From: a phage
Sequence record: PQ478073.1
Strand: one strand, 5' to 3'
DNA: 64,000 nucleotides
The translations under genes and the position numbers were made by a program. Each line of letters begins with the position of its first letter. The stretch's first letter is position 1. Under the pieces are notes generated by a model. It made no database searches, was not told the origin of the DNA, and was given only the letters and a program-made list of their open reading frames with translations. Below, in pieces: positions 3,563-24,087 of the stretch.

Positions 3563-4029
3563 ATATTTTAGGAAACATTGATACTGCAAATTATTTTATC
3601 CAGGACGCACTGTTCAATACAGTTCAACATGGATTAGAAGTTCGTCATAACGTTTACCAAGGTGATGGTTATTTCGTTGATATTGTTGAGGCACGAAAGA
3701 ATACGTTTAATGTTAACATTACAACACTGGGTAGACAGAACATTGCACGAATTTTAGTAAGTAAAGATGAAATTGTATTGAGATACAGTGCTAAGTTTAT
3801 GTTGACTTATAAGAAAAAAACTGATATGTTCAGTACTAATTTATTTGATGAGCCATTTGACCTTGAAGATATTGAAGCTACTTTCTTTACTCAAAGTACT
3901 ATGGTAAAATACACTGATGTTCAATTTTCTGCTGATGTAATGTCAGAAACATTACAAATGATCAAGGTATTATTTTATGCATTTGAGCAATTTAGAGAAG
4001 AAAGAAACAAGGTTAACAACCACAGATGA
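3556..4029 (+). CDS. hypothetical protein
   Basis: ORF track. Confidence 0.6.
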   Translation: MLDILGNIDTANYFIQDALFNTVQHGLEVRHNVYQGDGYFVDIVEARKNTFNVNITTLGRQNIARILVSKDEIVLRYSAKFMLTYKKKTDMFSTNLFDEPFDLEDIEATFFTQSTMVKYTDVQFSADVMSETLQMIKVLFYAFEQFREERNKVNNHR

Positions 4030-4390
4030 ACTAATAGAGGCGATCACTAAGGAGTCAAAATACCACAAAGGGATTCGTCTATATTTTATAGATATTGGTT
4101 CAATGGAAGGCATATACATTTATGGTTCACAATCTTTATCTTATGATGTAATGCCAAAAAAACATGTAAAAATCTTTTTAGGTTCAGATAAAAAAACTTT
4201 CTTGACAATTAATGATAAAAACGTTATTATGAATTCGTTGGGTCATGATAAGGTGGAAATTGATCTAAACACACTGGAGGATATTGATTTTTTTCAATAC
4301 GAGTGTTTAGGTGTTGACTTACATGGCATTAGTAGCGATATGATAAAATCATTAATCAAATATTTCGAAGGTGTTCATAAATGTATCTAA
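3977..4390 (+). CDS. hypothetical protein (start uncertain; 53-nt overlap with upstream ORF)
   Basis: ORF track. Confidence 0.45.
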   Translation: MHLSNLEKKETRLTTTDELIEAITKESKYHKGIRLYFIDIGSMEGIYIYGSQSLSYDVMPKKHVKIFLGSDKKTFLTINDKNVIMNSLGHDKVEIDLNTLEDIDFFQYECLGVDLHGISSDMIKSLIKYFEGVHKCI

Positions 4391-4878
4391 CTAAATCAAT
4401 GAAAAATTCATTTGATAAAATCAAGAGTTGTCTTGATGGGGAAAATATTACAAGTGTTACACAAACTGCTGACCAAATTCAAAGCAGTTCAAGTGATTGT
4501 ACTGTTATTTTAGGTTTACATAGTCTACGTTTATCAATAGTAAATAATATTGACAACACTGCTATTGTAATCACACCATGCCATATTCAAAATGAGAATG
4601 GTGTATATCTTCATCACATGGGAACAGTATTTCATATTTTCAATACAAACGAAAACATTGTTAAGGAATACAAATCTCTTAATATTGATTCAGGTGAATT
4701 ATTTCAAATGAGTACTTTGTACTCATGTAATTTTACAGATACTTCATGTATTTTGCCATTTTTCTTGGAAATTATTAAGAAAATGGAAAATTTAAAACGT
4801 GAATACAATAAAGAAATGGTTCCTGAAGCTATATTAAATATTACTAATGCTATAGAGAAGTATAATGCAGTGACTTAA
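4381..4878 (+). CDS. hypothetical protein, paralog family F-like (ELFQMSTLY motif)
   Basis: ORF track. Confidence 0.6.
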   Translation: MYLTKSMKNSFDKIKSCLDGENITSVTQTADQIQSSSSDCTVILGLHSLRLSIVNNIDNTAIVITPCHIQNENGVYLHHMGTVFHIFNTNENIVKEYKSLNIDSGELFQMSTLYSCNFTDTSCILPFFLEIIKKMENLKREYNKEMVPEAILNITNAIEKYNAVT

Positions 4879-4920
4879 TAAAAACGCACATGGAGTGCAT
4901 TAGAAGATCAAGGATAGATC

Positions 4921-8434: not shown

Positions 8435-8460
8435 GACATACCATAAGTTTATGATATAAT
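8432..8460 (+). promoter_or_regulatory. sigma70-like promoter TGAGAC-17-TATAAT with TGn extension
   Basis: same -35/-10 pair as at 22284; faces the ORF-free region. Confidence 0.45.
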
Positions 8461-9671: not shown

Positions 9672-10193
9672 ATGTCGAAGAAGGATGCTTCGAAAAAACA
9701 TTCAGTACATTTCAGTACTGGAAAAGATAACTGGACAACTCCCAAAGATTTCTTTGAAGATTTGGATGAGTTATGGGGATTTACACTTGATGCTGCTTGT
9801 GTAGATGAGACTGCATTGTGTGATAATTTTTTCACTCCAGAAGATGATTCACTATCACAGGATTGGGGAAATAATATAGTTTGGTTGAATCCACCATACA
9901 GTGACTTGAAAACTTGGTTATCTAAAGCAGTAGATGCATATAATAACGGGGCAACTGTAGTTATTCTTGTACCCTCAAGAACCGACACAATTGCTTTTCA
10001 GGATTATGCTGCTAAAATATGTGATTGTATTTGTTTTATTAAGGGAAGATTACGATTTGGTATACCAGAAGAACCCGATAAGAAAACAGATTCAGCACCA
10101 TTTCCTTCGTGTCTGATAGTACTGGATAAGTACTTAACCACTGCTAAAATCAATTATCTTAAATCTCTTGGGTTGGTGATGAAGAATTTATGA
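9672..10193 (+). CDS. phage-type DNA N6-adenine methyltransferase
   Basis: WTTP ... LDAAC ... WLNPPYS motif pattern; AAGGAA RBS. Confidence 0.8.
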   Translation: MSKKDASKKHSVHFSTGKDNWTTPKDFFEDLDELWGFTLDAACVDETALCDNFFTPEDDSLSQDWGNNIVWLNPPYSDLKTWLSKAVDAYNNGATVVILVPSRTDTIAFQDYAAKICDCICFIKGRLRFGIPEEPDKKTDSAPFPSCLIVLDKYLTTAKINYLKSLGLVMKNL

Positions 10194-10723
10194 AAGAAAC
10201 ATGTGTATTAACGTTTGGTCGTATTAATCCTGTACATCGTGGACATGGTTTAGTTTTTGAAAAGGCCAAAACATTACAAGAACAGTACAATGCTGATTTA
10301 AAAATATATCTAAGCACCAGTACTGACAATATAAAAAACCCACTCCCACCTGAACTAAAAATGTATTATACAGAGGGATTCTATCCTTCAGTGCAAGAGA
10401 ACATCTACACAGAAGACAATCTATTTGATATAATGAGAGAACTGGATGGAAAGTACTTAGATGTTCTTTTCATTTGTGGTTCTGACCGTATTGATTCTTT
10501 TCAAAAAACTCTTGACATGTACAATGGTAAGTTGTATAATTTTTGTAGTATAAAAGCAATTCAGGCAGGTATTGACCGTAATGTAAGTCAATATAGCTCA
10601 ACACAAATGCGTAACTTCGCAAAAAATGAAGATTTTGATAGTTTTCGTGAGTTTTTACCTGGAAATGACGAGGACTTAAAAATACAATTATTTGAAGACG
10701 TTATAAAATACATGAGGAAATAA
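10190..10723 (+). CDS. NadM-type nucleotidyltransferase (NMN adenylyltransferase-like)
   Basis: FGRINPVHRGH (HxGH) and ISST..R motifs; ATGA coupling to methyltransferase gene. Confidence 0.6.
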   Translation: MKETCVLTFGRINPVHRGHGLVFEKAKTLQEQYNADLKIYLSTSTDNIKNPLPPELKMYYTEGFYPSVQENIYTEDNLFDIMRELDGKYLDVLFICGSDRIDSFQKTLDMYNGKLYNFCSIKAIQAGIDRNVSQYSSTQMRNFAKNEDFDSFREFLPGNDEDLKIQLFEDVIKYMRK

Positions 10724-11019: not shown

Positions 11020-11299
11020 TGAAATAAATCTTACAGGATATTTTTTACAAGAATCAATGATTAAATTTAGTGAAAAATTTTCAGTACTGGATGGTATCGA
11101 AATGTGGCATGTCAAACCACTGTTCCACACTTTCAGTAAAGAGCACAAAATGTTATTGACTGAAGCGAGTAAATCAAATAACATATGTGAAATCAAAATT
11201 GGTGTAAATGTCTATAAAGGGATGGTTATCTTTTTTGACAATAACAGCAACTACTTTTATATTGTTAAGGAGCATTACGTTGACAAATACAAATACTAA
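11012..11299 (+). CDS. hypothetical protein (start uncertain)
   Basis: ORF track opens with TTG at 11000; first ATG at 11012. Confidence 0.4.
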   Translation: MCDEINLTGYFLQESMIKFSEKFSVLDGIEMWHVKPLFHTFSKEHKMLLTEASKSNNICEIKIGVNVYKGMVIFFDNNSNYFYIVKEHYVDKYKY

Positions 11300-11894
11300 T
11301 ACATACTTCCGTTATCTTCGCTTAGGTCTTTCCCTACGTCCGATCCGTGGAAAGTGCGATTCACTCGCTGACCTTGACTATGCATATGCATTACATCATG
11401 AAGGTGTACAGTATGTATTGGGTGATTATGGTGAATTTGAAGAAACAAATGACAGTACTGGAATTAATGCTGGTGTAGAAAATCTTAACAACATTGCTAA
11501 CAGTTCTCGCCATGACATTGTGTTACAGATTCAAAACTTTATTGAGCAGCACACAGGTAAACGTGTTTGGTGCTATGTCGGTACTGATGCACAAATGTCA
11601 ATTTCATTCGGTAACGATGAAGGATATGTTGCACAGCTTATTATGGATTTTGAATCTGAAGAGAAGTTTTTAGAATTCAAAGAAAAGATTATTCAGTCAC
11701 TTGTTGATATGGGTATCCCCGAAGATAAAATGCCAGAAGTTCAAAACATTGATGAATTTGTTTTGATTCCATCTGATGAGAAATATGATGCAATGTTTAC
11801 TGCCCTTAATATTCCAGGAGTTATTGTGGAGTACTTTGATGATGGTGATGATAGTATCTATATCGATCTAGATGACGATGACGACGATGAATAA
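11208..11894 (+). CDS. hypothetical protein with poly-Asp C-terminal tail (start uncertain)
   Basis: ORF track; C-terminus DLDDDDDDE; 5' part overlaps upstream ORF. Confidence 0.5.
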   Translation: MSIKGWLSFLTITATTFILLRSITLTNTNTNTYFRYLRLGLSLRPIRGKCDSLADLDYAYALHHEGVQYVLGDYGEFEETNDSTGINAGVENLNNIANSSRHDIVLQIQNFIEQHTGKRVWCYVGTDAQMSISFGNDEGYVAQLIMDFESEEKFLEFKEKIIQSLVDMGIPEDKMPEVQNIDEFVLIPSDEKYDAMFTALNIPGVIVEYFDDGDDSIYIDLDDDDDDE

Positions 11895-11900
11895 TGTACA

Positions 11901-11929
11901 TAGCCCGACATAAGTTCGGGCTATTTTTG
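11901..11929 (+). terminator. rho-independent terminator
   Basis: stem AGCCCGA/TCGGGCT then T-run. Confidence 0.65.
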
Positions 11930-11940
11930 TAAGGGGATAT

Positions 11941-12216
11941 ATGAATTATAAAGTTCTACAATATACATACAGTGTTTTGTTTGATTTACATCACAATGGA
12001 AGATATCTCAATACAATACGAGAAAACACATTCACTCATACTATCTGGATTAATCACTTAATAATGATACGTGAATATTTTGTTAATAGTGAGATAATCA
12101 TTCGTGGTAAAAAACAGAAGATAGAACAAGTTAATAGTTTTGGTGGTAAATTAGTACTATCATTTATAGATAGTAATACTAATGAAAGATATAGTATAGA
12201 TTTGGTGGACATATGA
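11941..12216 (+). CDS. hypothetical small protein, tandem paralog array A (member 1)
   Basis: ORF track; N-terminus MNYKVLQYTYSVLFDL. Confidence 0.6.
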   Translation: MNYKVLQYTYSVLFDLHHNGRYLNTIRENTFTHTIWINHLIMIREYFVNSEIIIRGKKQKIEQVNSFGGKLVLSFIDSNTNERYSIDLVDI

Positions 12217-12479
12217 ATTATAAAGATTTCCTACTAACATACAAGATTATTCGAGATTTAGCACACGACAATGATAGCCCTAGTCTAGAAGACACATGCA
12301 CTGAAATGATTCATACAATTCGTGGTAAGATTAAAAAAAAATTCAGTACTGTTATTATTGGTGATGACCATGCAGAATTTTCTGATATAATCATTAGACG
12401 TGATGGTAAAGTTGAGGTTCAGTACTACACTGATTTTGGATTTACCAGTATTCCGTTGGAGATATTCCCTTGGGATTAA
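12213..12479 (+). CDS. hypothetical small protein, array A (member 2)
   Basis: ORF track; MNYKDFLLTYKIIRDL; ATGA coupling. Confidence 0.6.
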   Translation: MNYKDFLLTYKIIRDLAHDNDSPSLEDTCTEMIHTIRGKIKKKFSTVIIGDDHAEFSDIIIRRDGKVEVQYYTDFGFTSIPLEIFPWD

Positions 12480-12781
12480 ATTTAAATGATATACAATTCA
12501 CTTATAAGATCCTATATGATTTGTATGATGTATACCTTGTTAGTAACAAAATAGGTTCACATAACCCATACAAAGAACAACCATTTATTGATTTATATAT
12601 TGAGTACTTAGATTCAGTAGGTGAATATATAAAAAAGAATTACAGTACTTTTATCGATGGAAATGATATATTCGAGTTCTCTGGAGTTAAATCATACAAT
12701 GGGATTATCCATGTTGAATTTCTTGAAATAACTGATAGGGGATTTATCGAGATTAAAGTTGTGAAGTTGGTGAATTTATAA
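12470..12781 (+). CDS. hypothetical small protein, array A (member 3), apparent TTG start
   Basis: ORF has no in-frame ATG; N-terminus LNDIQFTYKILYDLY parallels member 4. Confidence 0.5.
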   Translation: MGLNLNDIQFTYKILYDLYDVYLVSNKIGSHNPYKEQPFIDLYIEYLDSVGEYIKKNYSTFIDGNDIFEFSGVKSYNGIIHVEFLEITDRGFIEIKVVKLVNL

Positions 12782-12791
12782 GAGGTTACAT

Positions 12792-13103
12792 ATGTTATTA
12801 AATGATATACAATTCACATACAAATTTTTGTATATCCAATACGCTACGGTTGATGCTGGTGAATATCTCTACGATGAAATCTATCGTTCGCTATGGATAA
12901 AGTTTTTGGATGAATTACATGAATATTACCATGATTTGTGTATAGTTCGTGATAATAAAATATACAAATTCCGCGATATTGTTAGTCATAGCGGTAAGCT
13001 ACGATTGGAATTAAGTACTGATAGTGATGTTGATTGGATTGGTGTAAATTTACTGGAGTTGGAGAATGAAAAACAACTTAAAGGAAATACAAGTATTTTA
13101 TAA
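12792..13103 (+). CDS. hypothetical small protein, array A (member 4)
   Basis: ORF track; MLLNDIQFTYKFLYIQY. Confidence 0.6.
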   Translation: MLLNDIQFTYKFLYIQYATVDAGEYLYDEIYRSLWIKFLDELHEYYHDLCIVRDNKIYKFRDIVSHSGKLRLELSTDSDVDWIGVNLLELENEKQLKGNTSIL

Positions 13104-13350
13104 ATTCTTATACTTATCATATGTAAAAGATGAGTACTATGAAAGTGTGTATTATTTTTTATGGCAACATTACCGTACTATAGTAAGAGATTTATATATA
13201 GGAAAATCTATCATATCCAATGGTGAAAAATGTACCTGTACGGATGTAGTTAGTTTTAATGGTTCTTTAACACTGTGTTTCAGATGCGATAATAATAGTG
13301 GGTCATTTTCATTAAACGTATATCAGTTAGAAGGAATAAATTTTGAATAA
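13066..13350 (+). CDS. hypothetical small protein, array A (member 5)
   Basis: ORF track; GGAG RBS; MKNNLKEIQVFYKFLYLSY. Confidence 0.6.
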   Translation: MKNNLKEIQVFYKFLYLSYVKDEYYESVYYFLWQHYRTIVRDLYIGKSIISNGEKCTCTDVVSFNGSLTLCFRCDNNSGSFSLNVYQLEGINFE

Positions 13351-13543
13351 ATGTCCATATTGTAACAGTACTCAATTAGCTCGTTTCCGTTTAGATTCAG
13401 ACTGGGCGACTGGTGCTGGTGATTTCTTCCCTATTAATGATGATGCGGAATACACCGAAGAACAGCACAAAGATTTTGATAAATCATGGCGACCTGACAT
13501 TGAGTGCATTTATTGCCTTAATTGTGAGCGTGTTCATGACTAA
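13343..13543 (+). CDS. small zinc-ribbon protein (CPYC ... CLNC)
   Basis: ORF track; two Cys pairs. Confidence 0.55.
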   Translation: MNKCPYCNSTQLARFRLDSDWATGAGDFFPINDDAEYTEEQHKDFDKSWRPDIECIYCLNCERVHD

Positions 13544-13799
13544 AGCTGAACTAATAGTTCATACATATAAAATGATATCAAGTACTGAGTTATCATATAG
13601 TGCAGATAATCCAGTACTGGATTATTTTGTTGAATTATTGAAAGAGCATTATATTGGTAAATCACTGAATATTAATAATATTAATTTCACTATAACGGAT
13701 GTGGGACCAGGAAAAAACGTACTAATTGTATGTATTACTTCAACTGGTAACCCATTATACCCAATATCAGTAATTTTTGAGGTATTAGGTGATTTATGA
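13536..13799 (+). CDS. hypothetical protein (start moved from 13413 to internal ATG)
   Basis: track ORF overlaps upstream gene; ATG at 13536 overlaps upstream stop. Confidence 0.45.
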   Translation: MTKAELIVHTYKMISSTELSYSADNPVLDYFVELLKEHYIGKSLNINNINFTITDVGPGKNVLIVCITSTGNPLYPISVIFEVLGDL

Positions 13800-14086
13800 A
13801 TATCATATTAATACAAAAAACATATACTCTACTGATGAAAGAATATACTAATACTTATGATGAAAAGTGCAGTGCAAATCATAATATGTATGAATTCATT
13901 ACTCAAGAGTACAGGGATTATATATATGCTGTGTTAGTGGGTAGATATTTCAGTACTAGAAAATACACAAAACTTCAAATAGTTGATGTTTCTTTTTATT
14001 TCAATGGTCATATTACTATTCATAGTTTAGACCAAGATTCAACAACGTACTTAAACTTTTCATTTGATGAGGTAACATTTTTATGA
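13796..14086 (+). CDS. hypothetical small protein, array A-like
   Basis: ORF track; MNIILIQKTYTLLMKEY. Confidence 0.6.
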   Translation: MNIILIQKTYTLLMKEYTNTYDEKCSANHNMYEFITQEYRDYIYAVLVGRYFSTRKYTKLQIVDVSFYFNGHITIHSLDQDSTTYLNFSFDEVTFL

Positions 14087-14259
14087 GAACAGTATTTTTT
14101 ATCTGGAGTCTTTTTTCATTGGCAGTACTGACAGTATGTGGGATTTGTTTCCTTTCATCAATTAATACTTGGTATATCAATTTACTATTTCCATTTGTCG
14201 GTGTTGGTTTAGGGTTTACTTTGCATAGTGTATGTAAGGATTACAATGAGAACAAATGA
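14083..14259 (+). CDS. small hydrophobic membrane protein (about 58 aa), below ORF-track cutoff
   Basis: hand-read ORF MRTVFFIWSLFSLAVLTVCGICFLSS...; ATGA coupling. Confidence 0.4.
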   Translation: MRTVFFIWSLFSLAVLTVCGICFLSSINTWYINLLFPFVGVGLGFTLHSVCKDYNENK

Positions 14260-14524
14260 AGTACTTATTGCTGAAACAATGAAGATGATTTACAATATCA
14301 CGTCAGCACAGAATATGCCCTATCCAACTAAGTCTTTATTGAGGACTGTGTATCTGGGGATAGTACAGGAGTACTACAAATCCAAGCACCGAAGCATTAT
14401 TAGTGTTTATCGTGATTATGAAAGGATTCGTATTTTATTCTGGAACAAGAATCGAGTACGTTCTGAATGTGACCTAGTGGACTTTAAATTAGAGAATCTT
14501 TATTGCTATAAACAGGGACAATAG
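14246..14524 (+). CDS. hypothetical protein
   Basis: ORF track frame; AAGGA RBS before ATG at 14246. Confidence 0.55.
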   Translation: MRTNEVLIAETMKMIYNITSAQNMPYPTKSLLRTVYLGIVQEYYKSKHRSIISVYRDYERIRILFWNKNRVRSECDLVDFKLENLYCYKQGQ

Positions 14525-14542
14525 TTTAATTCATGATATAAT
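14514..14542 (+). promoter_or_regulatory. sigma70-like promoter GGGACA-16/17-TGaTATAAT
   Basis: extended -10 about 40 nt upstream of start at 14583. Confidence 0.45.
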
Positions 14543-14582
14543 AATGGGTAAGGAACAATAATTAACACAAGGAGTGTGTGAA

Positions 14583-15311
14583 ATGCTTGACCGTATCCGT
14601 TTCGCTACAGAGATGGCGAATGAATTAAACATGGCAAATTTCCAAATGTTAACATCAGTAATGGCTGAACATGCATGTGCTTATTCTGTAAGTGGTGTGC
14701 AGTGTGGTCAGGAGAATATGTTAGCAGATGTTTATAGTGAAGTGCAAAGTAAGCAATATAGTGTAAAGACATATAAGGATAAGTTTGTTAGTCTTTATAT
14801 GAACGAAGATATTGCCGAAGACCGTAAATTCACTGATTTTATTATTGAACGCCGAGTATCAGGTGTATCTAATCCTAATGCATCAAGCGAGGAAGTTTTT
14901 GCAGAAGTACTGAAAGATATATACGAAAATGAATTAAAAAGTAAGAATCATTACAATGTACGTGAAACGAACACAGTGCTCTTGGGATATGATGAAGACG
15001 AAGAATACTATTATTTTCGTATGACTGAAGTTCCTTTTGAATACAAATCTCCATATACAACTACAGTGAAAGAATTTACTGAAAAAAGTAAAAACTTCAT
15101 GAAGCATGAAGGAAATCGTTGTAGTATAAATGGTTATGACGAAAATGGCATTCACATTTATGAATGGGTTCACCCAAATTGTCAGACATACACTCGTTGC
15201 TTGAAAAAACGTTATAATTTAGAAGAGCATGAATCATTCTATTTTAAAGTTAAGAAGCAAGGTTATACTCGCCCCGCCGATTCTGAATTGATGGGTATGA
15301 TATATTTCTAA
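14583..15311 (+). CDS. hypothetical protein
   Basis: ORF track (GTG at 14574); AAGGAG RBS before ATG at 14583. Confidence 0.65.
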   Translation: MLDRIRFATEMANELNMANFQMLTSVMAEHACAYSVSGVQCGQENMLADVYSEVQSKQYSVKTYKDKFVSLYMNEDIAEDRKFTDFIIERRVSGVSNPNASSEEVFAEVLKDIYENELKSKNHYNVRETNTVLLGYDEDEEYYYFRMTEVPFEYKSPYTTTVKEFTEKSKNFMKHEGNRCSINGYDENGIHIYEWVHPNCQTYTRCLKKRYNLEEHESFYFKVKKQGYTRPADSELMGMIYF

Positions 15312-15321
15312 GGAAACTTCT

Positions 15322-15603
15322 ATGGATTTTTATCTACACACATGGACATACGAACAATATATTACATTATATCTTGAAATTATTAACACAGAACCTAGGT
15401 GTGGTTGTAGGTTCGCAGATATCATAAAAGAGTATGCTGACGAGTTCGAGTTTGTGTATCTTGGGTCTGATATATTTGTAAAAAGTGTAGGTAAAACCGG
15501 ACGAATCACTGATATAGATTACGACACTGTTAGTGTGAATTTCTATGTTGATTTTCCTGATGCTGGCGTTGATGGTGTATATTGTCTTTATGAAATAATT
15601 TAA
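15322..15603 (+). CDS. hypothetical protein
   Basis: ORF track. Confidence 0.55.
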   Translation: MDFYLHTWTYEQYITLYLEIINTEPRCGCRFADIIKEYADEFEFVYLGSDIFVKSVGKTGRITDIDYDTVSVNFYVDFPDAGVDGVYCLYEII

Positions 15604-15610
15604 ATTCTTA

Positions 15611-15635
15611 GGCCAGCGTTTGCTGGTCTTTTTTC
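15611..15635 (+). terminator. rho-independent terminator
   Basis: stem GCCAGC/GCTGGT then T-run. Confidence 0.6.
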
Positions 15636-18920: not shown

Positions 18921-19151
18921 ATGAAAGTTGAAGTTCAGCATAGTATTGTTCAGGATATGTCAGTAGTTAAATTTCTTTCTCTGAAAGATTACTTCAGATG
19001 TATCAAGTTCCTAGAAGAATCTCAATTACAGTGGACCCCATTAAAGTACAGTTCATCCAATGATACTGCTAGTATTCGTTGTGATGAATCTGTACTTGTG
19101 AAAATCTCCAAGCGATTTGGAGTAGGAAAAGTTAATGAGCACAGTAAGTGA
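18921..19151 (+). CDS. hypothetical protein
   Basis: ORF track; AAGGAG RBS. Confidence 0.5.
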   Translation: MKVEVQHSIVQDMSVVKFLSLKDYFRCIKFLEESQLQWTPLKYSSSNDTASIRCDESVLVKISKRFGVGKVNEHSK

Positions 19152-19389
19152 CCTAAAATACTACAACAAAACTGCGGATACGTTTATTACTCATTTATAT
19201 GAAGAATTTAGTCGTATCCGTGAGGAATATACAGGTAAATGTATTTTATATAGTTCTTATCATAGTGGTGGAATTGAAAGTGCTTACATTACTAAAGTGA
19301 AGTTTTCTGATGACTATCAATTACTCTTTGAATTAGATGATTGTTTCGTTATTGAAGCTTGTTTGATAGTGGATGTTCTAGATAATTGA
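19135..19389 (+). CDS. hypothetical protein
   Basis: ORF track. Confidence 0.5.
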   Translation: MSTVSDLKYYNKTADTFITHLYEEFSRIREEYTGKCILYSSYHSGGIESAYITKVKFSDDYQLLFELDDCFVIEACLIVDVLDN

Positions 19390-19395
19390 GGACAT

Positions 19396-19710
19396 ATGAA
19401 TAAAGAACTTGCATTTGAGAGGATCGAAAAGTTAAAGTACATTGAAAAGGAACTAATAGAATCTGTCGAATCAATGGTCGAAGATTACGTTTTCGATTTT
19501 AAGAAAACATTGATTGGATGTAAAGTTAAATGCTGGGATCATACAATCAGAGAATGGTTCAGTACTATAATTCTTGATGTTAAAGTATCGCGTACTGCTA
19601 TTGGTAATTTAGTAAATGGTGAATGCTTTGTATACACTGAATACAATAACGGAACAAGAAACCTTTCAAGAGGATGGCACAAACTCGAAGATGTAGAATT
19701 CATTGAGTAA
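19396..19710 (+). CDS. hypothetical protein
   Basis: ORF track; GAGGA RBS. Confidence 0.55.
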   Translation: MNKELAFERIEKLKYIEKELIESVESMVEDYVFDFKKTLIGCKVKCWDHTIREWFSTIILDVKVSRTAIGNLVNGECFVYTEYNNGTRNLSRGWHKLEDVEFIE

Positions 19711-20704: not shown

Positions 20705-20881
20705 ATGAATGTAAAAACACAGATGTTATTACAAAAAGAATACTTAGAAAATATAGAAATGTTCTATAGATTGTCTTTATACGAAAATAAACATAAAAAA
20801 TATAGCTTTTCTAAACATCTAAACACAAGTACTGATGATTATCTATTTTCATCAATGTTTTATGTGAGAGGTTTATTATAA
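20705..20881 (+). CDS. hypothetical small protein (start moved from 20636)
   Basis: AAGGA RBS before ATG at 20705. Confidence 0.4.
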   Translation: MNVKTQMLLQKEYLENIEMFYRLSLYENKHKKYSFSKHLNTSTDDYLFSSMFYVRGLL

Positions 20882-21141
20882 TGGATAAATTTCACACAGA
20901 TATAACACAGATAGGTAATCTTATCAATAGTCTAATTACTGATTTAGAAGAAAAGTATTTAGGTCGAAATGTATACGTAGAAATGTATGAAACATATGGT
21001 GTTATTGATATGATTTATTACAGTGCATTGAAGTGTGAAATACGTTTAACAGTATGTTTGTTTGAAAAAAATACATTCAACAGAAGTACTGCAATTCGCC
21101 AAGTTGGAGTTGATGATATAGAATTATACGAGGAACAATGA
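20881..21141 (+). CDS. hypothetical small protein, loose family B
   Basis: ORF track. Confidence 0.55.
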   Translation: MDKFHTDITQIGNLINSLITDLEEKYLGRNVYVEMYETYGVIDMIYYSALKCEIRLTVCLFEKNTFNRSTAIRQVGVDDIELYEEQ

Positions 21142-23620: not shown

Positions 23621-23836
23621 ATGATAACATTTTTTGCAATATATGGATTTGTAGCATTTGTTACATTTATAACCAACTTTCTAGTACTCAATTGGGGTTG
23701 TTTTAAAGATGAAATCATGATTATCATGAATCTCCAAACAGCAGCACTGATGGCTATTATTTGGCCTGTAACATTAGTATATATTTTTATTTCACTTACC
23801 CAAGATATTATTAACAAATATAAGAGAAAGAAATAA
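23621..23836 (+). CDS. small two-TM membrane protein
   Basis: ORF track; hydrophobic segments. Confidence 0.5.
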   Translation: MITFFAIYGFVAFVTFITNFLVLNWGCFKDEIMIIMNLQTAALMAIIWPVTLVYIFISLTQDIINKYKRKK

Positions 23837-24087
23837 TGTTCAACACTGACTTATCACATCTGCGATATCTTATGTCTTTGGCTGATGATTTTATAAATGA
23901 TCTGAAGCCAAAATATATTGGTCAAGAAGTACGATTAATAAACTCCAGAGGGTATGGAAAGTATATTATTACTGATATGTATATTAGTGGTGGTGAATGG
24001 CGTTTTAAAATTAATACTTATCTTAAAGATGGTTCTTTTGCTGGAACACAAGTTACTAAACACACTAATATTATATGGTTGGAGTAA
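23836..24087 (+). CDS. hypothetical small protein, loose family B
   Basis: ORF track. Confidence 0.55.
   Translation: MFNTDLSHLRYLMSLADDFINDLKPKYIGQEVRLINSRGYGKYIITDMYISGGEWRFKINTYLKDGSFAGTQVTKHTNIIWLE

Follow-up and report, generated by a model that had tools for sequence, protein, structure and literature searches.

What kind of locus is formed by the string of small genes at positions 11941 to 14086 of phage sequence record PQ478073.1, and what might its products do? We addressed this question in a stretch of 64,000 nucleotides (nt) of that record (hereafter the window, to which coordinates refer unless stated otherwise), which is ∼33% G+C and in which every gene called in this analysis lies on the plus strand. 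A preliminary description of this DNA had proposed a tandem array of at least five paralogous open reading frames (ORFs), with a sixth at 13796, that are start/stop coupled, rapidly evolving, and possibly engaged with the host or its defenses. Region 11500 to 14600 of the window is 99.1% identical to Escherichia phage JP4 and 96 to 99% identical to UB, slurp01, 121Q, phAPEC6, and PBECO4, all 350-kb Asteriusvirus jumbo myoviruses; judged by this identity, the source genome is an Asteriusvirus jumbo coliphage of the 121Q/PBECO4 type. The relatives carry the annotation "hypothetical protein" for every gene under the matched region. From the sequence comparisons below, we show that 11941 to 14086 holds a tandem multigene family of one phage lineage with seven solid members, named A to G, and a nonmember zinc-ribbon gene, named Zn:

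11941–12216, plus strand: member A, 91 amino acids (aa), ATG start with an AAGGGGA ribosome-binding site
12213–12479, plus strand: member B, 88 aa, start overlapping the stop of A (ATGA)
12470–12781, plus strand: member C, 103 aa, TTG start, 10-nt overlap with B
12792–13103, plus strand: member D, 103 aa, the modeled protein (two helices and a four-stranded sheet)
13066–13350, plus strand: member E, 94 aa, start 38 nt inside D
13343–13543, plus strand: Zn, not a member, 66-aa four-Cys zinc ribbon, TTG start
13536–13799, plus strand: member F, 87 aa
13796–14086, plus strand: member G, distant, 96 aa, placed by profile and predicted-fold evidence

Smith-Waterman alignments of A to E were compared with 300 composition-preserving shuffles per pair. 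The z scores were 13.7 for C with D, 13.1 for D with E, 12.4 for B with C, and 11.9 for A with E, followed by 7.8, 6.5, and 5.6 for A with D, B, and C, respectively; no shuffle equaled the real score in any of these pairs. By pairwise BLASTP, A with E, B with C, C with D, and D with E aligned over nearly their full length at 23 to 32% identity, and when all 58 small ORFs of the window were compared with one another, the array stood out as by far the strongest paralog cluster. The PHROG assignments, all of "unknown function," are 21004 for C and D, 32291 for A, 35943 for B, 33961 for F, and 28826 for G; phrog_21004, the family of C and D, was also matched by A (3.5 × 10−5) and E (3.3 × 10−5). 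Because no shuffle reached the real scores (z of 5.6 to 13.7) and the PHROG models concur, the similarity among A to E goes beyond composition, and on these alignments the five are true paralogs. The five separate PHROG groups, which that database presents as unrelated looking, are shown here by sequence comparison to share a common origin.

The tandem array of the preliminary description was thus borne out and, if anything, understated: A to E and G were all found where it had placed them, but F had been missed as a seventh member, and the interval between E and F is occupied by the unrelated zinc-ribbon gene. F matched the family by hhalign (74.5%; E = 2.7 × 10−5) and aligned to E with a z score of 7.3; E in turn cross-matched the PHROG of F at 0.014. 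G was matched by the family hidden Markov model (HMM) at E values of 1 × 10−4 to 8 × 10−4, and its ortholog in JNE01 was matched at 1.3 × 10−6 to 5 × 10−8. The N-terminal motif by itself does not establish the membership of G, which needs the profile together with the predicted fold. In an iterative HMM search seeded with A to E only, with the SD records (Salmonella SD-6_S16 and SD-1_S14) left out and an equal number of reversed decoys added, A to E were in at round 0, G entered at round 1, and F entered at round 3 (E = 2 × 10−10); the search converged at 79 sequences with zero decoys included. An earlier iterative search, in which F had been drawn in via a chimeric F-G ORF of the low-quality record SD-6_S16, was discarded.

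The members are predicted to be soluble proteins of ∼85 to 105 aa (∼10 to 12 kDa), and the isoelectric point (pI) is 4.7 to 5.8 in six of the seven, the exception being A (pI 8.0). Their consensus comprises hydrophobic-Q-x-T-Y-K-x-L-Y in the N-terminal helix, Y-F-(I/V)-G-K at the end of helix 2, and S-(Y/F)-x-G-x-L at a turn. In a weighted consensus (66 sequences in ∼31 clusters), the turn Gly reached 93%, Thr 71%, and Tyr 69%; the conserved positions were of the buried hydrophobic or aromatic type, joined by the Thr-Tyr of helix 1 and one turn Gly, and no charged residue, His, or Cys was invariant over the ∼31 clusters. The AlphaFold2 model of D, built from a 23-sequence family alignment, was confident (predicted local distance difference test [pLDDT] of 83.4; predicted template modeling [TM] score of 0.73). 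It places helices at residues 3 to 18 and 25 to 45 and strands at 50 to 53, 56 to 66, 69 to 75, and 82 to 86, predicting a fold in which a helical hairpin at the N terminus packs against a sheet of four antiparallel strands.

This model found no convincing match among known folds. Foldseek comparison with BFVD returned E values of ≤1 × 10−3 for four proteins only, all of these phages; the matches of the D model include A0A1C3S6P8 (the slurp01 ortholog of G by exact-sequence look-up; TM score of 0.67/0.71 at 13% identity; E = 1 × 10−4) and A0A097EY12 (121Q gp426, the ortholog of E). The remaining good scorers were small proteins of RaK2 and other jumbo phages, which bring no functional information. 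The low-confidence model of F (pLDDT of 54; shallow alignment) showed the same order of two helices followed by four strands, and its best BFVD match was the 121Q ortholog of E. In the PDB, a sequence profile search gave nothing below an E value of 0.045, and fold-search matches spanned about half of the domain, with no chain fitting the whole helix-hairpin-plus-sheet unit. Subthreshold matches to Cwp8_D2, DUF4196, DpnI, REase_II, and Lar, none of which recurs over 23 members, were set aside as noise. Since only core hydrophobic or aromatic residues and Gly are conserved, and no catalytic-looking constellation is present, the members are probably not enzymes; they are probably nonenzymatic scaffolds with free, variable surfaces, and nucleic acid binding by the family seems unlikely.

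Rapid evolution, as the preliminary description had put it, agreed with comparisons across relatives. Over six genome pairs, the pooled ratio of nonsynonymous to synonymous differences per site (pN/pS) was 0.35 to 0.53 in the array, versus 0.03 to 0.21 in flanking genes (Fisher P from 0.02 for 121Q, where the flanks held only 8 substitutions, down to 9 × 10−23). Gene by gene, the corresponding rate ratio (dN/dS) was 0.2 to 0.8 in the array (0.72 for A against UE-S1, 0.44 to 0.79 for D, and 0.46 to 0.62 for F), whereas flanking genes (dam, cyt, u1, u3, Zn, and L243) showed 0.02 to 0.10 against the closer Asteriusvirus strains and up to ∼0.35 against JNE01/RaK2. Because no array gene had a gene-wide pN/pS above 1, positive selection is not demonstrated. 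The ORFs were intact across lineages whose flanks differ by a synonymous divergence (dS) of 0.5 to >1. Given these intact ORFs, a pooled pN/pS below 1, conserved starts and ribosome-binding sites, and a confident fold, we consider A to G to be real genes.

Alleles were also replaced outright, with single genes only 30 to 60% identical between strains while their flanks were 86 to 99% identical. In EC.P1, amino acid identity to the window was 58% for A, 74% for B, 71% for C, 97% for D, 99% for E, 97% for Zn, 30% for F, and 96% for G; dS was 0.04 to 0.10 for D, E, and G and above 1 for dam, cyt, u1, u3, and L243. The 30%-identical F allele of EC.P1 (positions 3990 to 4391 of locus L008) lies between genes 96 to 97% identical to those of the window, and F is likewise replaced by a 30%-identical allele in ph0011 (4479 to 4880 of locus L002), where Zn is 98% and G only 74% identical. 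By these identities, F has been swapped as a single-gene cassette. Measured in windows of 60 nt, identity changed sharply close to the gene boundaries C/D, D/E, Zn/F, and F/G, and at this resolution strain-to-strain transitions fell near several gene starts that bear repeats. A 26-nt DNA repeat marks the 5′ ends of C (12482 to 12507; 100%), D (12798 to 12823; 92%), and E (13078 to 13103; 77%), and a 54-nt repeat at the starts of A (11935) and B (12207) is 70% identical; the repeats encode the conserved N-terminal helix motif and may help cassette exchange. Paralogs within the array have diverged to 15 to 30% identity. Together, these sequence patterns show a family that evolves by duplication and loss, fast amino acid change, and whole-gene cassette exchange between cocirculating strains.

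Among 5.8 billion clustered proteins, a profile search matched 33 clusters, and among 1.84 billion representatives, exhaustive searching with HMMER gave 18 of the family; all matches that could be placed were array genes of Asteriusvirus group genomes or of syntenic metagenomic contigs. On these searches, the family appears confined to RaK2-like jumbo phages. Synteny extends out to Klebsiella phage RaK2 and runs from a Dam methylase gene through a cytidylyltransferase-like gene, two small genes, and a gene for an acidic protein of ∼200 aa to the array with its zinc ribbon, then to a 243-aa protein gene, with RnlA and PseT lying beyond it. Detected members range in number from three or four per locus, in RaK2, up to at least seven. 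In types such as the window, 121Q, ph0011, and A4, five members precede the zinc ribbon and two follow it; JNE01 has three before and a G-like member after, with an F-like ORF below the inclusion threshold; and in RaK2, ORF453 precedes the zinc ribbon, ORF455 and ORF456 follow it, and ORF469 lies at a greater distance. A more distant relative, on metagenomic contig SRR22590159 (L013, 3287 to 5400), has a single member ahead of the zinc ribbon and five or more beyond it, so that expansion has occurred on either side of Zn. In A4 (L003, 4027 to 4827), the first three slots are all A-like (∼36% identity to A; scores of 43 to 46) in place of A, B, and C, through either lineage-specific reduplication or replacement. 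Salmonella records SD-6_S16 (L006) and SD-1_S14 (L007) show partial B-C and F-G deletions (window equivalents 12408 to 12738 and 13755 to 13945) with chimeric ORFs. We did not rely on these as evidence of dispensability, because genes are fragmented throughout the two records and the deletion junctions lack paralog-to-paralog register; the records are 20 to 40 kb shorter than their relatives, and the deletions may be sequencing or assembly artifacts.

How would such a string of genes be expressed? As had been described, most junctions share ATGA or a short overlap. ATGA is common to A/B, F/G, and G/H (H being the next gene downstream; see below), and overlaps measure 10 nt at B/C, 38 nt at D/E, 8 nt at E/Zn, and 8 nt at Zn/F; C and D are separated by a 10-nt gap that holds a GAGG ribosome-binding site. 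This layout points to a densely packed, translationally coupled string. The TTG start that had been remarked on belongs to C; all lineages with a C ortholog retain it, together with a GGAG located 9 nt before it, while codon 2 varies. The ATG of E at 13066 is likewise conserved, and the family N-terminal motif is present only with this start; 121Q gene 426 (the E gene) is annotated 16 codons too late (78 aa), and E is unannotated in PBECO4 and UE-S1. Three transcription signals were placed around the array:

10512–10540, plus strand: sigma-70 consensus promoter TTGACA-N17-TATAAT, score of 12/12, inside the cytidylyltransferase-like gene
11900–11929, plus strand: intrinsic terminator, hairpin plus T-run, 12 nt before A
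15610–15629, plus strand: intrinsic terminator after candidate member J (see below), the next one downstream of the array

Because all 12 related loci, RaK2 included, keep the hexamers of 10512 to 10540 unchanged around a variable spacer, this element is probably a real host-polymerase promoter. It lies ∼1.4 kb upstream and would be the foremost candidate for driving the transcription unit that reaches the array. The stem of the 11900 terminator (GCCCGAC/GTCGGGC) is conserved in the aligned Asteriusvirus lineages while its loop varies, and the intergenic region of RaK2 differs; between terminator and A there is no room for a promoter. The array would then be reached early in infection by host RNA polymerase reading through this terminator. 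T4 delayed-early genes offer an analogy for such transcripts, and those of the array may be of the same read-through, "delayed-early" type. Separately, an extended −10 motif, TGATATAAT, recurs in intergenic gaps at 8452, 14534, 22304, 30020, and 39330, the copy at 14534 lying just upstream of the 243-aa gene at 14583; these sites are probably a class of phage promoter read by host polymerase.

Turning to function, a role in host interaction or antidefense is plausible on the evolutionary pattern. The reading that we favor, tentatively and with somewhat less than even confidence, is that the products are stoichiometric binders of host or defense proteins. Each paralog would bind, inside the infected cell, to a host or defense-system protein; the bound target would be blocked or redirected; and the spread of diverged copies and alleles would allow for variation among the targets. 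In the literature that we searched, the array genes appear only as hypothetical proteins, and we found no experimental data on them. F corresponds to gp385c of phAPEC6, a 97%-identical phage, and this maps the array onto gp38x/gp39x, and the virion proteome of that phage, comprising 62 proteins, contains nothing between gp347 and gp549 (PMC7247149, Table 1). Because homologs are undetected in these virions (PMC7247149), the family is probably intracellular rather than injected. For the account as a whole, in which a lineage-specific family of scaffold proteins is expressed by read-through, evolves by cassettes, and acts by binding, we regard the chances of being right and wrong as evenly balanced.

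Several points weigh against this account. The binder or inhibitor role is deduced entirely from size, fold type, absent catalytic residues, and evolutionary pattern, and expression timing entirely from promoter and terminator sequence. The alignment behind the fold model of D is shallow, at 23 sequences, all of a single family. Searches of Pfam, NCBIfam, PADLOC, the PHROGs that have a function, and the PDB (both sequences and folds) revealed no similarity to a characterized protein. Mass spectrometry can miss virion proteins that are small and of low abundance. Finally, a pN/pS that is raised and still below 1 can be explained by relaxed constraint with no arms race.

That last point leads to a different explanation, that the genes are weakly constrained or functionless tandem duplicates under relaxed selection, carried in a large head that, following an idea of Hua et al. 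(2017), tolerates extra DNA. The array pN/pS is 3 to 5 times that of neighboring genes and never exceeds 1, copy number varies freely, and tandem duplication has been proposed as a route of jumbo genome growth for 121Q, from a different array of >30 genes (Hua et al. 2017, PMC5646251). The genes of that array are very similar to one another (Hua et al., PMC5646251), and because A to G are only 15 to 30% identical we take it to be a different locus. Mere duplicates nevertheless fit poorly with seven of seven frames being intact in strains of the 121Q, PBECO4, UE-S1, EC.P1, and ph0011 types, at a flank dS of 0.5 to >1, and with distant strains holding diverged members in the same slots. A pooled pN/pS of 0.35 to 0.5 means that most amino acid changes are still removed; moreover, starts (including the unusual TTG) and ribosome-binding sites are conserved, the hydrophobic core and Gly turn are kept over ∼30 clusters, and the fold prediction is confident. 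We consider this explanation unlikely. Tight start/stop coupling along the string, one shared fold with a conserved core, and sheet edge strands that could pair between protomers would instead suit paralogs that are subunits of one hetero-oligomer, a ring or filament whose proportions are fixed by the coupling. Yet the number of members per locus differs widely among relatives, and lone members are swapped for 30 to 60% identical alleles beside near-identical neighbors, which ill fits coadapted interfaces, so that a joint assembly strikes us as distinctly unlikely.

The probable intracellular location bears on the idea that the products are internal head proteins injected like T4 IPI, IPII, and IPIII to disarm host restriction at entry. 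The most conserved part of the family is indeed its N-terminal 15 to 20 residues, the array is hypervariable between strains, and an inner body is present in the heads of 121Q and phAPEC6 (PMC5646251, PMC7247149). None of the 62 phAPEC6 virion proteins is a homolog, however (PMC7247149), the N-terminal motif forms the predicted helix 1 of a folded domain rather than a detachable leader, and no conserved Glu-type protease site follows it; we judge injection very improbable. Least probable of all are degenerate nuclease-fold or nucleic acid-binding regulators. This idea draws on weak matches of B (a PADLOC type II restriction enzyme, E = 8 × 10−4; DUF4928, E = 0.1) and F (DpnI, E = 0.02) and on the zinc-ribbon gene within the array, but the restriction enzyme match occurs in 2 of 23 members only, no family recurs across members, no conserved acidic or Lys catalytic motif of the PD-(D/E)xK kind is present, and most members are acidic.

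A separate question is how far the family extends. Downstream of G lie one nonmember and three candidate distant members:

14083–14259, plus strand: H, not a member, 58 aa, hydrophobic and resembling a protein with two transmembrane segments (grand average of hydropathy, 0.92), coupled to G and I; hhalign probability of 0.1%
14246–14524, plus strand: I, candidate distant member, 92 aa, basic
15322–15603, plus strand: J, candidate distant member, 93 aa
15648–15950, plus strand: K, candidate distant member, 100 aa

By hhalign against the family, I gave an E value of 9.5 × 10−4 (probability of 22% over 85 columns), J gave 4.5 × 10−3, and K gave 5.6 × 10−3, compared with 0.14 to 0.45 (probability of 0.1 to 0.4%) for four control genes. 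In the iterative HMM search, I to K fell at E values of 0.005 to 0.08 (0.037 for I; 0.005 in the last round for the 121Q ortholog of K), with the first decoy at 0.11. I is also linked to the family through the member at 4261 of L013 (z of 6.2), and the J ortholog of L013 aligns to G with a z score of 6.9. On these profile scores, I, J, and K are candidates for distant membership, and the family has seven members and possibly ten. Among other small ORFs, 16 of 53 scored ≥3 against the family profile, versus 5 when the 53 were reversed and 4.7 when they were shuffled. A second, loose family was also seen at 19135 to 19389, 20881 to 21141, and 23836 to 24087 (z of 6 to 8 among these three), with further ORFs at 19396, 21138, 21684, 23289, and 24839 (83 to 109 aa); it has in common with E and F a Y-x-G-K/R/Q-x-V helix-to-strand junction. 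Compared with the A to G profile, the ORFs at 19135, 20881, and 23836 gave an hhalign probability of 1.9%, which is not significant.

A wider and more doubtful proposal is that A to G are the recognizable core of a larger, extremely diverged superfamily of ∼85 to 110 aa proteins (helical hairpin plus small sheet), an evolvable, recombining inhibitor panel organized around Zn, to which would belong I, J, K, and perhaps ten ORFs at 17 to 25 kb with the Y-x-G-K/R-x-V junction. If true, the superfamily would make up a large share of the unannotated small early-region genes in RaK2-like jumbo phages and account for a sizeable portion of genomic "dark matter" in this group, whose 350-kb genomes have >80% of genes without known function. 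Several Asteriusvirus phages are being characterized for therapy or biocontrol of pathogenic Escherichia coli. Where annotation had a dozen hypothetical proteins without relationship, there is now one fast-evolving, cassette-exchanged family with a predicted fold unmatched in the PDB; its seven genes and their natural alleles, down to 30% identity, provide a defined and cheap target set for antidefense or host-takeover screens, and the natural allele swaps between otherwise near-identical phages could be correlated with host range.

The gene in the middle of the array behaves differently from the members around it. Zn gave an hhalign probability of 0.2% against the A to G family and is thus unrelated. 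Its identity is 97 to 100% in most Asteriusvirus strains, 83% in JNE01, and 70% in RaK2; its pN/pS is ≤0.06 among the closer Asteriusvirus strains and 0.15 to 0.18 against JNE01 and RaK2; and its DNA sequence, too, is conserved in Klebsiella phages of the RaK2 type. The TTG with which it starts in the window is replaced by ATG in JNE01 and RaK2. Neither Pfam nor NCBIfam gave a significant match, and a homolog search found three close clusters only, which were uninformative. It is possible that Zn serves as a conserved anchor or regulator of the locus. In K64-1, the gene is annotated as "TFIIS-like." Of the genes before the array, 11208 to 11894, just upstream, encodes a conserved and very acidic protein (pI 4.06; net charge of ∼−30) that ends in DDDDDDE, has no known relatives, and belongs to phrog_15575 (function unknown). 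The gene at 10190 to 10723 (121Q gene 418) is called "ribonucleotide reductase A" in 121Q and Ecwhy_1; its profile matches are cytidylyltransferase-like (PHROG 3041 at 8.5 × 10−58 and, weakly, Pfam CTP_transf_like), and from these the label is likely wrong.

The family is thus new and uncharacterized, and its kind is familiar: a multigene family of accessory character, located in a plastic part of a large phage genome. The array resembles acr-aca antidefense loci in having small, fast-changing, mix-and-match genes around one conserved small gene, here Zn. It differs in that this conserved gene encodes a four-Cys zinc ribbon rather than a helix-turn-helix Aca and in that the variable genes, which are not known to have antidefense activity, all belong to one family, whereas those of acr-aca loci are unrelated. 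T4 IPI, IPII, and IPIII are small, hypervariable proteins that have in common a capsid-targeting N terminus, with a leader ending in the protease site L/I-x-E, and that disarm host restriction on entry. Like these and the T4 hyperplastic regions, the array is a row of small hypervariable genes that have an N-terminal motif in common, and it sits close to rnlA and pseT in a myovirus whose core genes are T4-like; unlike the T4 internal proteins, its products have homologs that are undetected in virions, an N terminus that is part of the predicted fold, and no conserved protease site. Large DNA viruses provide a further comparison in their multigene families or "gene accordions," such as the amplification of poxvirus K3L and the MGF110/360 genes of African swine fever virus; in these families, as in phage antidefense loci, diverged panels cover variable targets. 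Unlike the recent amplifications of those viruses, the copies of A to G are ancient (15 to 30% identity), they are exchanged between strains by whole-gene cassette recombination, and no host target is known for them. What the array shares with the poxvirus and African swine fever virus families is a set of tandem paralogs of strain-dependent copy number, in an accessory region, whose proteins evolve faster than those of their neighbors.

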